DNA from: a virus | Lineage: Duplodnaviria; Caudoviricetes | Direction: 5' to 3' (one strand) | Virus record (IMG/VR): IMGVR_UViG_2934390892_000001 | Coordinates: 1-64,000 of that record | DNA length: 64,000 bases | Shown here: one piece after another, positions 4,969-6,614 of the stretch | Layout: the number at the start of each line of letters is the position of its first letter | How positions within the stretch are numbered: position 1 is the stretch's first letter | Made by a program: the position numbers and the translations under genes | The notes under the pieces: generated by a model | Told to the model about the DNA's origin: nothing | Databases searched by the model: none | Seen by the model: the letters and a program-made list of their open reading frames with translations, nothing else

Positions 4969-6614
4969 GCACCCCACAGACTTCCGCCCCAGCTAGCGGG
5001 ATCACGACGCCCAGGGAGTTCTCGTTGGGGCGGAACAGCATTTCCCGGTCGACCCCAGATCTGTCGACGCCCGTCGCTGAAGCGTTGGCCGGGTCAGGCT
5101 CCCTCGACGGCCAGGCCCCCGCCGACACCCAAGACGCGAGCGCTGTCGAGGGCAACTCTTCCCCGCAGGCCATATCTGATCCGGATCCCACATGGTCCGC
5201 GCCTGCGGGGACCTCATCTACGGCAGCGGCCAAAAGGAGCGCGTCTCCCAATGACTCCTCGCTGCTGCCGTTCAAGGCCAGCCAGGCCGCCCCAAACTGC
5301 TCCGACGCCCATCGTGAGTGCGGTGGCCTGGCTGAAGACCTCCCCGGCGACCAGGGTGACCCCGATTCCCATTGTTCAAGCGTCGCCGGGGACTCAGCTC
5401 AGCCGACAGCCATAGATCTGCCACTTCCCAAAGCAGCCTCGCTGTCGGCTGCCAATTCCCCCCGGACGGCCAATACACGCTCGTCGGCCATACACGACAC
5501 GCCGTCCGGGGATCAGCTTCCGCGAGAGGCCAGCGTAAGCTCGGCGCCCACATGGGCAACGCCTCTCGCGGATCAGACTCCGCCCCTGGCCATAGATCGT
5601 GCGCTCTCCAAAGCCGATTTGCCAGGGGTGGACGAAGCAGGGTCGTCGGTTCCGGCCGTACGCGAAGCGATGCCCATACGGCTACCGCCGGAACTGGCAG
5701 ACCCGCTCCTCGCTCTCGCCGCCGATGTCCTCGACGACCTGGAGTCGGTGTGGATCGCCAACACCAACCGCCTCCGGCAGCTCACCCGCGACGTTGAAGA
5801 CTCGGACGGGGAGGAGCGCGGCTTCGGCCTGACGCTCGACCACCCCGACGTCGCCCGCCTCGCCGCCCTCGTTGAGGCGCTGGACAAGGCGCAGCAGGAC
5901 GCAACGAAGAACCTCACGAAGAGGCTCAAGTCCCACCCGCTCGCGCCGTGGCTGAAGGCCCAGAAGGGCGTCGGCGACAAGCAGGCCGCGCGCCTGCTCG
6001 CGTCGATCGGCGACCCGTACATGCGGCCCGAGATGCGGTTCGAGGACGGCACCGTCGAGCCTGCACGCCCCCGCCGCGTAAGTGAGCTGTGGGCGTACTG
6101 CGGCTACCACGTCATGAACTTCCCCGCTGGTCAGCTCACGACCGACACCCATCTGGTCAGCGCCAGCGGGGGTAAGACCGGCCACCTCGACCAGAGTAGA
6201 AGCGATACCCATGCGTCGGGCGTCGGGGTGGCCCCCAAGCGGGCTCGGGGCCAGCGCGCGAACTGGTCCAGCACGGCAAAGATGCGCGCCTACCTCATCG
6301 CCGAATCCACGATGAAGCAGCTCAAGCGCACCTGCCCGGCCGACGAGGAACGCGGTTACGCCACCCACACGGACGGGTGCGAGTGCTCCCGCTACCGCAA
6401 GGTCTACGACGCCGCCCGCGAGAAGTACGTGGATGCCATCCACCACGCGGAGTGCGTCCGCTGCGGCCCGAAGGGCAAGCCCGCCCCGGTCGGCTCCGAC
6501 CTGTCGCGCAAGCACAAGCAGGCCCGCGCCCTCCGCATCGTCTCCAAGGAACTCCTGAAGGACCTGTGGCGCGAAGCGCGGCGCATCCACCTCGGAGAGG
6601 AGGAGACGACGTGA
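4965..6614 (+). CDS. Nop-domain / IS110 C-terminal-like RNA-binding protein (TasA-like, no nuclease domain); true start uncertain (4965 or ~5628/5670)
   Basis: Coiled coil, then WLKAQKGVGDKQAARLLASIGD, SELWAYCGY, RGQRANWS, YRKVYD and HKQARALRIVSKELLKDLW; no DEDD RuvC or HNH motifs. Confidence 0.8.
   Translation: MSTPQTSAPASGITTPREFSLGRNSISRSTPDLSTPVAEALAGSGSLDGQAPADTQDASAVEGNSSPQAISDPDPTWSAPAGTSSTAAAKRSASPNDSSLLPFKASQAAPNCSDAHRECGGLAEDLPGDQGDPDSHCSSVAGDSAQPTAIDLPLPKAASLSAANSPRTANTRSSAIHDTPSGDQLPREASVSSAPTWATPLADQTPPLAIDRALSKADLPGVDEAGSSVPAVREAMPIRLPPELADPLLALAADVLDDLESVWIANTNRLRQLTRDVEDSDGEERGFGLTLDHPDVARLAALVEALDKAQQDATKNLTKRLKSHPLAPWLKAQKGVGDKQAARLLASIGDPYMRPEMRFEDGTVEPARPRRVSELWAYCGYHVMNFPAGQLTTDTHLVSASGGKTGHLDQSRSDTHASGVGVAPKRARGQRANWSSTAKMRAYLIAESTMKQLKRTCPADEERGYATHTDGCECSRYRKVYDAAREKYVDAIHHAECVRCGPKGKPAPVGSDLSRKHKQARALRIVSKELLKDLWREARRIHLGEEETT
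4982..5697 (+). ncRNA. Stem-loop TIGR-like guide array, 12 units
   Basis: 12 tandem hairpins spaced 58-66 nt apart; stems of ~10-13 bp differ in sequence and each closes a 30-nt loop with consensus CCA-N9-CG-N4-CCA-N9-CG. Confidence 0.85.
6120..6233 (+). ncRNA. Two additional TIGR-like guide hairpins embedded in the Tas-like CDS
   Basis: ccccgctgg-TCA-gctcacgac-CG-acac-CCA-tctggtcag-CG-ccagcgggg and gccacctcga-CCA-gagtagaag-CG-atac-CCA-tgcgtcggg-CG-tcggggtggc. Confidence 0.8.

Follow-up and report, generated by a model that had tools for sequence, protein, structure and literature searches.

A probable stem-loop TIGR-TasA system with fourteen guide units in the early region of an actinobacterial temperate siphovirus or prophage

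Does a phage protein that resembles the RNA-binding half of IS110 transposases, and that has no nuclease domain, belong to an RNA-guided system, and if so, to which one? The question is raised by the open reading frame at 5670-6614 of the window, the whole 64,000-nucleotide stretch analysed here (positions 1 to 64,000 of IMG/VR record IMGVR_UViG_2934390892_000001, within a contig of 87,045 nt), which an initial annotation had described as a nuclease-less, Nop/IS110-like effector of the TasA type. We find that it encodes a nuclease-less Tas protein (TasA) made of a coiled coil and a Nop-domain fold; the family profile NF052498, structural comparison with Foldseek and a cognate guide array all agree with the annotated identity. 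Taken as a whole, the locus very probably represents a complete stem-loop TIGR-TasA system, which a temperate siphovirus or prophage of a high-GC actinobacterium carries in its early rightward operon. It is of a known class, that of the stem-loop TIGR-TasA systems of Faure 2025 (PMC12045711) and Xu 2026 (10.64898/2026.09.09.750476), down to the guides within the gene, and constitutes no new class.

The family assignment is carried by NCBIfam profile NF052498 ("TIGR-Tas system RNA-guided endonuclease"), which matches TasA residues 14-304 over all of its positions (1-215 of 215) with 204.6 bits against a curated cutoff of 100 (E-value 1.8e-60). PHROG 4285, labelled "transposase", also matches (E 3.1e-86), and the sole significant phmmer match among the PDB sequences is 9mty_A, the structure of TasR (E 2e-4). 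Pfam gave nothing above cutoff for either the 314- or the 549-residue reading of TasA, no HNH or RuvC domain was detected, and the Pfam Nop models had no match at E≤1. The initial annotation was therefore right that neither a RuvC DEDD nor an HNH domain is present, and since both are absent, the product name "RNA-guided endonuclease" overstates what this protein can do. All the motifs quoted in that annotation occur in the plus-strand translation (Table 1). The homologue search found 1865 proteins at E≤0.001 among 8000 candidates scored, and 63 of the 120 listed were aligned. It also showed an identical TasA on a contig of about 1 Mb and relatives that are 82-84% identical to TasA; a metagenome scan for the latter gave only relatives with a best-segment identity of 27-58%.

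The AlphaFold2 model of TasA, built on the alignment with these 63 homologues and assigned secondary structure with DSSP, reached a pLDDT of 87.0 and a pTM of 0.82 and consists of a helical hairpin followed by a mostly helical C-terminal domain. The hairpin corresponds to the coiled coil recognised in the initial annotation; it aligns with the coiled-coil part of TasR and TasH in Foldseek and is the presumed dimerisation domain. Because the coiled coil begins at residue 12, there is no room in front of it for an HNH or RuvC domain. The first ten Foldseek matches in the PDB are all TasR (9mty) or TasH (9vzx, 9w03, 9w04, 21kl, 9w02), with a probability of 1.00, E-values of 1.6e-6 to 1.3e-4 and TM scores of 0.50-0.56. 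The IS110 recombinases come next (E 0.02-0.1 overall), beginning with IS621 (8wt9, E 0.02) and ISCro4 (9t56, E 0.05), and behind them Nop5, Nop56/58 and Prp31 (E 0.45-3 over 146-159 columns, TM 0.22-0.25). The fold is thus Nop-like, as the motifs had led the initial annotation to expect, and nearest to the solved Tas structures. The pLDDT falls below 50 only at residues 150-159 and 163-189, which form a disordered loop. The last helix spans residues 280-308 of 314, and the short tail of six residues that follows it fits the stem-loop Tas clade, which lacks the extended C-terminal Y/H loop for tigRNA processing (Xu 2026, 10.64898/2026.09.09.750476).

The guides of this protein lie beside and within its gene. 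A repeat finder revealed an inverted-repeat ladder upstream of tasA, with gaps of 30 nt and a period of about 60 nt, and scans for stems resolved 14 tigRNA units, 12 upstream of tasA at a unit-to-unit spacing of 58-66 nt and two of the same architecture inside the coding sequence, all on the strand of tasA. In each unit a unit-specific stem of 10-13 bp closes a 30-nt loop composed of CA, a 9-nt spacer A, CGNNNCCCA, a 9-nt spacer B and C, and the loops of the 14 units conform to the pattern CA-N9-CG NNN CCCA-N9-C(G). Each spacer is preceded by CCA and followed by CG, both at the stem-proximal (edge) and at the loop positions. In a gap-free alignment of the 14 units, C27, C33, C34 and G46 are invariant, and C15, C16, G28, A35 and C45 are conserved in at least 90%. 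These boxes fit the CCA/UG rule given for box C and box D of TasR tigRNAs (Faure 2025, PMC12045711) with C replacing U, box D here being CG. The stems vary while remaining paired: 153 of 154 cells are paired, compensatory changes on both sides occur in 10 of 11 pairs, none of 500 shuffles reached the observed pairing or covariation, and sliding the partner by 1-3 columns reduced pairing to 29-53%. The 87,045-nt contig contains 331 other hairpins of at least 6 bp with 30-nt loops on the plus strand and 350 on the minus strand, and a CCA-box unit was found on neither strand outside the stretch of about 1.25 kb at 4982-6233. Rfam had no match in 4300-6800 at E≤1. Many stems start at or just after CU or CUU, resembling the CUU processing motif described for stem-loop guides by Xu 2026 (10.64898/2026.09.09.750476). 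The intragenic units u13 and u14 encode exactly the disordered loop of TasA (residues 150-189), the 3' arm of u14 coding in addition for part of the conserved segment GVGVAPKR; guides embedded in a disordered loop of tasA are likewise reported in Bifidobacterium longum (Xu 2026, 10.64898/2026.09.09.750476). The features that define the class, namely a Tas fold, a TIGR array, palindromic variable stems, the absence of a nuclease and a short C terminus, were all found at this locus.

The arrangement is conserved among relatives. We compared 111 sources, comprising 30 bacterial loci, 80 viral contig loci and the window contig; 27 of the bacterial loci are from actinobacterial isolates or metagenome-assembled genomes, including Actinomadura, Streptomyces, Kitasatospora, Mycobacterium, Parafrankia, Gordonia and Microbacterium, and the other three are metagenome-assembled contigs labelled Rhodanobacteraceae, Pseudomonadota and "bacterium". 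Under a strict filter, at least one unit of the same architecture stands beside tas in 99 of these 111 sources; units are placed upstream in 94 and downstream in 29, and one to three intragenic units occur at about codons 130-200 in 52. With the same filter, arrays of at least 13 units appear in only 4 of the remaining 110 sources, and the array of 14 is large for the clade. In two near-identical loci (L024 and L025), the stems of all nine units are kept and the spacers differ in 5 of 9, and this change of spacers between close relatives whose stems are kept suggests fast spacer turnover.

Several observations concern the spacers themselves. GATC occurs in 5 of the 14 A spacers of this array (u1, u2, u4, u8 and u11; 4996-5601) and in none of the 14 B spacers, and since it is found in only 20 and 22 of 531 spacers across relatives (about 4%), we regard it as a local oddity and not as a family rule. 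Units u8 and u11 have in common the 5' parts of both spacers while their stems differ, as if they were aimed at two variants of one site. In u9 (5473-5499), spacers A and B share a 6-nt word, and the predicted target would therefore be an inverted repeat in either geometry; palindromic targets as a general rule were rejected, the A and B spacers of the 531 pairs being no more alike than those of permuted pairs. In u1-u14 (4996-6220) and the 531 pairs of the relatives, both spacers share a positional bias, position 1 being A or T in 62-65% and positions 3 and 6 being G or C in 66-71%, and they are AT-richer than the surrounding DNA of 67% GC. Whichever order of the half-sites is assumed, the phase of this bias is not that expected of coding targets.

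Published work on Tas proteins suggests how the system may operate. The plus strand would be transcribed through the companion gene described below, the array and tasA, and each of the 14 hairpins would yield a tigRNA some 52-56 nt in length. Two TasA molecules, held together by the coiled coil, would form a dimer that binds one tigRNA by its two pairs of box C (CCA) with box D (CG), and the two 9-nt spacers would each pair with a different strand of a single contiguous 18-bp DNA site. Because TasA has no nuclease domain, the ribonucleoprotein would then stay on the DNA and block transcription or replication instead of cutting. By analogy with that work, expression and processing of the tigRNAs, dimerisation and DNA binding can all be anticipated here, as can a biological role, which would most likely be the silencing of competing mobile elements or superinfecting phages. 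TasA has been reported to repress reporters and to bind target DNA in a guide-dependent manner (Xu 2026, 10.64898/2026.09.09.750476), and from these other TasA proteins we infer similar guide-dependent binding or repression for the present one; the cryo-EM structure of PlTasA has two 9-bp heteroduplexes on opposite strands, according to Guan 2026 (10.64898/2026.08.11.744272).

Among the systems described, those of BlTasA (from B. longum), MbTasA and PlTasA are closest, a likeness that we base on their described features and not on sequence. They share with our locus a protein that lacks a nuclease and combines a coiled coil with a Nop domain, hairpins in tandem with variable palindromic stems, a 9-nt loop between the spacers, a short C-terminal tail, CU(U)-type bases at the foot of many stems, and units that lie both before tas and within its coding sequence, there in a disordered loop as described for BlTasA. 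The present locus differs from them in its box D, which is CG and not UG, in its 14-unit array, in an invariant H-x3-C-x2-C cluster, in an optional Cys/His insertion and in its companion gene. TaTasR (9mty) and SpTasH (9w04 and others) are the best structural matches and have the CCA box C rule and the dual-spacer logic in common with our system, but they carry an N-terminal RuvC or HNH domain, use 36-nt dual-repeat guides and cleave DNA, whereas TasA has neither domain and stem-loop guides. The likeness to IS621 and ISCro4 and to Nop5, Nop56/58 and Prp31 extends to the RNA-binding Nop-type C-terminal fold and to a guide RNA with two guide segments (Faure 2025, PMC12045711); in contrast to the IS110 and box C/D Nop systems, our locus lacks both DEDD and serine catalytic domains, is without a partner of the fibrillarin or L7Ae kind and has its guides in an array.

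Several results weigh against this interpretation, and most of them come from the search for targets. Faure 2025 (PMC12045711) and Guan 2026 (10.64898/2026.08.11.744272) state that spacers A and B pair with opposite strands of a contiguous 18-bp site in wording that leaves the order of the half-sites ambiguous, and both orders were tested. In the 87,045-nt contig the best self-targets have 3-4 mismatches of 18 and none has 2 or fewer. In a wider search, 531 unique spacer pairs were compared with 1.65 Mb of sequence (every locus plus the contig, with arrays masked), and no excess was seen relative to either control geometries or permuted partners. Real pairs had 3 and 2 hits with one mismatch and 69 and 68 with two; the corresponding numbers were 3 and 1 and 80 and 77 for the control geometries, and 2-7 and 54-78 for the permuted partners. 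Four exact 18-mer scans of viral contigs, made for the related guides u8 and u11, returned 0, 1, 2 and 0 hits, which we take to be chance matches since all lie in contigs of 32-40% GC. In addition, the edge box is not CCA in 4 of the 14 units (u1, u2, u6 and u12), the loop box of u2 is a variant too, and these four units may be weak or inactive. What the negative target searches do indicate is that guides in this clade are not directed against the early regions of their relatives.

A first alternative keeps the machinery and changes its job. The guides could be directed to the host chromosome or to prophage DNA and serve in the control of lysogeny and excision, for instance as a DNA-bending aid to integrase and Xis, or in the silencing of host genes. 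The position of the tasA cassette directly after Cro-like and excisionase genes is consistent with such a role, as are its position in Mycobacterium phage Euphoria, downstream of the immunity repressor gene, and in Gordonia phage BENtherdunthat, after the repressor, cro and ant; an aid to integrases was proposed from the 180 degree DNA bend in Faure 2025 (PMC12045711), and AT-rich spacers are what would be expected of guides to promoters or intergenic regions in a high-GC host. Against it stand the contig, which has no site within two mismatches, and a search of five related host genomes with one guide pattern at up to one mismatch, which gave 0 hits (as did a reversed control); moreover, spacers that differ between close relatives with conserved stems fit changing targets better than fixed sites. 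We consider this alternative unlikely, and favour the silencing of competing elements.

A second alternative concerns the array, which might also be translated, giving a TasA of 549 residues with a long disordered N-terminal extension and a guide maturation coupled to its translation. The start of tasA is in fact uncertain, because ATG 5670 sits within the loop of unit u12 and the frame is open upstream as far as GTG 4965 (549 aa); GTG 5628 (328 aa) is another possible start and the one used in the public gene call for an identical protein. The stop codon of the companion gene and GTG 4965 overlap, the frame from that GTG through the array has 0 stops in 235 codons, where the two other forward frames contain 4 and 7 and each reverse frame 3-4, and homologues have been called at 274-548 aa, with BENtherdunthat gp059 annotated through its own array. 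Arrays within the 5' end of tas that leave the frame undisrupted are also described by Xu 2026 (10.64898/2026.09.09.750476). However, about four stops would be expected in such a stretch, and one open frame of six is only mildly unusual. The GC content by codon position is flat over the array (0.64/0.65/0.70), unlike that of the tas core (0.69/0.48/0.90) and of a neighbouring gene (0.67/0.46/0.91), and the spacing of 58-66 nt puts the boxes into differing phases from unit to unit. On these two grounds we read 4965-5669 as RNA-coding; a translated extension is possible but unsupported, and we judge this alternative, with its coupling of guide maturation to translation, quite improbable.

That the gene is instead a decayed IS110-family transposase without guide-RNA function, as might be read from the "transposase" label of PHROG 4285, of TasA homologues in several RefSeq phage records and of Euphoria gp70 and BENtherdunthat gp059, from a weak NF033542 match (E 4.3e-4, residues 61-118) and from the Foldseek matches to IS621 and ISCro4 at E 0.02-0.05, is contradicted by an NF033542 score of only 19.5 bits against a cutoff of 140, by the coiled coil from residue 12 in place of a DEDD RuvC-like N-terminal domain, by the Tas structures, whose matches surpass those of IS110 recombinases by 4-5 orders of magnitude, and by the 14 dual-spacer hairpins beside the gene, an arrangement kept in 99 of 111 sources, and we hold it to be extremely unlikely. 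Identity with the box C/D proteins Nop5 and Nop56/58 was likewise rejected, there being no Pfam Nop match and only the partial Foldseek alignments given above.

The gene immediately upstream of the array accompanies tas to an extent that no other neighbour does. With tblastn, 51 of 110 loci proved to have this companion gene upstream of tas in the same orientation, compared with 0 of 110 for xis, the HTH gene and the two downstream genes and 2 of 110 for the Sak4-like gene. Of the 105 loci whose upstream DNA is long enough, 98 have it on the same strand no more than 2.5 kb upstream according to a profile of 82 sequences, and in five of the remaining seven its open frame abuts tas, which brings the number to 103 of 105 and leaves two loci (L086 and L100) without it. 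This linkage, in loci that share none of the xis, HTH and downstream genes, leads us to regard it as a partner in the cassette. Its counterparts in cultured phages are Euphoria gp71 (E 1.1e-33) and BENtherdunthat gp058 (E 3.9e-44), and all five phage records with a tblastn match to the companion also carry tas, the match lying 0.3-1 kb upstream on the same strand. The protein belongs to PHROG 4604 (E 1.4e-17) and matches 607 library representatives at E≤1e-3, but has no Pfam match at E≤0.1. Its model is mostly helical (pLDDT 90.6) and resembles no fold in the PDB, the best Foldseek match having an E-value of 3.5 and the best VIA-align match a Z score of 4.3 over 58 residues, and a comparison with the protein atlas gave no usable match. 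Since no acidic or histidine column is conserved at 90% or more in the 82-sequence profile, we lean towards a binding or adaptor role rather than an enzymatic one. Tentatively, actinophage stem-loop TIGR-TasA systems could require the companion as a third component, which would act as a maturation factor at the base of the tigRNA stem, as an installer or exchanger of spacers, or as an effector arm of DNA-bound TasA, although we think this somewhat doubtful. The nearest precedent is the tasParB-tasA operon of Faure 2025 (PMC12045711), in which TasA also has a conserved gene in the same operon; there, however, the partners are ParB proteins and the arrays are of the dual-repeat type, whereas the companion has no Pfam match and no ParB stands among the Foldseek and VIA-align matches listed for it. 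An accessory factor for stem-loop systems was not found in the literature searched, including Xu 2026, a search that did not extend to preprint supplements or to the supplementary figures of Faure 2025, where the link may already be catalogued.

TasA also carries two groups of cysteines and histidines, which the initial annotation had described as two Cys/His insertions. Both are present, but only that at residues 222-239 is an optional insertion: in the alignment of 64 sequences, C222, H233 and C237 are each kept in 35 and deleted in the other 29, and C239 is Cys in 35 and substituted in the rest. The second group, H258-x3-C262-x2-C265, is invariant, these three residues as well as H282 and H307 being present in 64 of 64 sequences. 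From this conservation, the H258/C262/C265 cluster with H282 could form a zinc site. Alternatively, H282 may be part of a helix that contacts box C, by analogy with the histidines described for PlTasA in Guan 2026 (10.64898/2026.08.11.744272). The words "zinc" and "cysteine" are absent from the body text of the TIGR-Tas papers searched, the sole "cysteine" in Faure 2025 being in its reference list. The clusters are thus a lead without a match in the literature searched, and may be catalogued in the preprint supplements and the Faure supplementary figures, which lay outside that search.

The cassette lies in a temperate siphovirus or prophage of a high-GC soil actinobacterium (Table 1). That tasA follows cro and xis in an early operon, as had been proposed, is borne out by the HTH regulator and excisionase genes that precede it. 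Divergent promoter-like sites, which are consensus matches only, occur at 3405-3376 on the minus strand and 3520-3549 on the plus strand, and consensus matching found no terminator-like site on the plus strand before tasA. Some 3 kb downstream of tasA, within the early region, lies a free-standing HNH endonuclease gene, which relatives do not keep next to tas. At 42659-44208 on the plus strand, just before the terminase gene, adjacent genes match glycosyltransferase/DNA methyltransferase and nucleotide-sugar epimerase PHROGs and may form a module for DNA or surface modification.

Table 1. Features of the TIGR-TasA locus and of the surrounding prophage (positions in the window)
Feature	Position	Strand	Remarks
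Tyrosine integrase	1-1554	-	Cut by contig end; prophage left end; PHROG 1, E 5.4e-41
HTH (Cro-like) regulator	3520-3831	+	PHROG
Excisionase	3828-4157	+	PHROG
Companion gene, array and tasA	4438-6614	+	
Companion gene	4438-4968	+	176 aa; likely start GTG 4438; open reading frame open from 4366; PHROG 4604, no known function
Upstream stem-loop TIGR array, u1-u12	4982-5698	+	Stem scan
u1 hairpin	4982-5035	+	
u2 hairpin	5044-5093	+	Degenerate boxes
u3 hairpin	5101-5152	+	
u4 hairpin	5160-5211	+	
u5 hairpin	5220-5271	+	
u6 hairpin	5279-5334	+	
u7 hairpin	5341-5392	+	
u8 hairpin	5400-5451	+	
u9 hairpin	5460-5511	+	
u10 hairpin	5519-5572	+	
u11 hairpin	5579-5632	+	
u12 hairpin	5645-5698	+	
tasA, nuclease-less TIGR-associated protein	5670-6614	+	314 aa from ATG 5670
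Coiled-coil helical hairpin	5703-5930	+	TasA helices 12-39 and 59-87 (DSSP on model)
Motif KGVGDKQAARLLASIGD	5964-6014	+	TasA residues 99-115
Motif SELWAYCGY	6081-6107	+	TasA residues 138-146
Intragenic tigRNA units u13, u14	6121-6233	+	u13 6121-6172, u14 6180-6233; contig-wide scan; architecture as upstream units
Motif RGQRANWS	6246-6269	+	TasA residues 193-200
Optional Cys/His insertion C222, H233, C237, C239 (motif CPAD..HTDGCEC)	6333-6386	+	TasA residues 222-239; alignment of 64
His/Cys cluster H258-x3-C262-x2-C265, with H282	6441-6515	+	Conserved in relatives
Motif HHAECVRC	6441-6464	+	TasA residues 258-265
Motif HKQARALRIVSKELLKDLW	6513-6569	+	TasA residues 282-300
Sak4-like	7956-8864		
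HNH endonuclease	9789-10553	+	
Anti-repressor (Ant)	11417-12187		
DnaC-like loader	21109-21699		
DnaB-like helicase	21696-23057		
Terminase large subunit	46655-48415		
Portal	48247-49827		
Head maturation protease	49808-50545		
Major head protein	51273-52217		
Head-tail adaptor	53260-53907		
Major tail protein	54855-55511		
Tape measure	56602-61134		

In a phage collection, 90 records have a TasA homologue, namely 83 Mycobacterium, 5 Gordonia, 1 Rhodococcus and 1 Arthrobacter phage, and these homologues are annotated as "hypothetical protein", "transposase" or "DNA binding protein". In BENtherdunthat, two more tigRNA units of full architecture lie inside the annotated hypothetical gene gp057 (1996-2085 of locus L112); they come before the companion, roughly 1 kb upstream of the main array.

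The natural targets, the maturation of stem-loop guides and the renewal of spacers are named as open questions in the Discussion of Xu 2026 (10.64898/2026.09.09.750476). Our locus offers a clean example of 14 guides in a complete temperate phage, and the same cassette is found in cultured phages of laboratory hosts, in BENtherdunthat and in the 83 Mycobacterium phage records. Together with these, the companion gene and the conserved Cys/His clusters provide concrete leads for the study of stem-loop TIGR-TasA systems.

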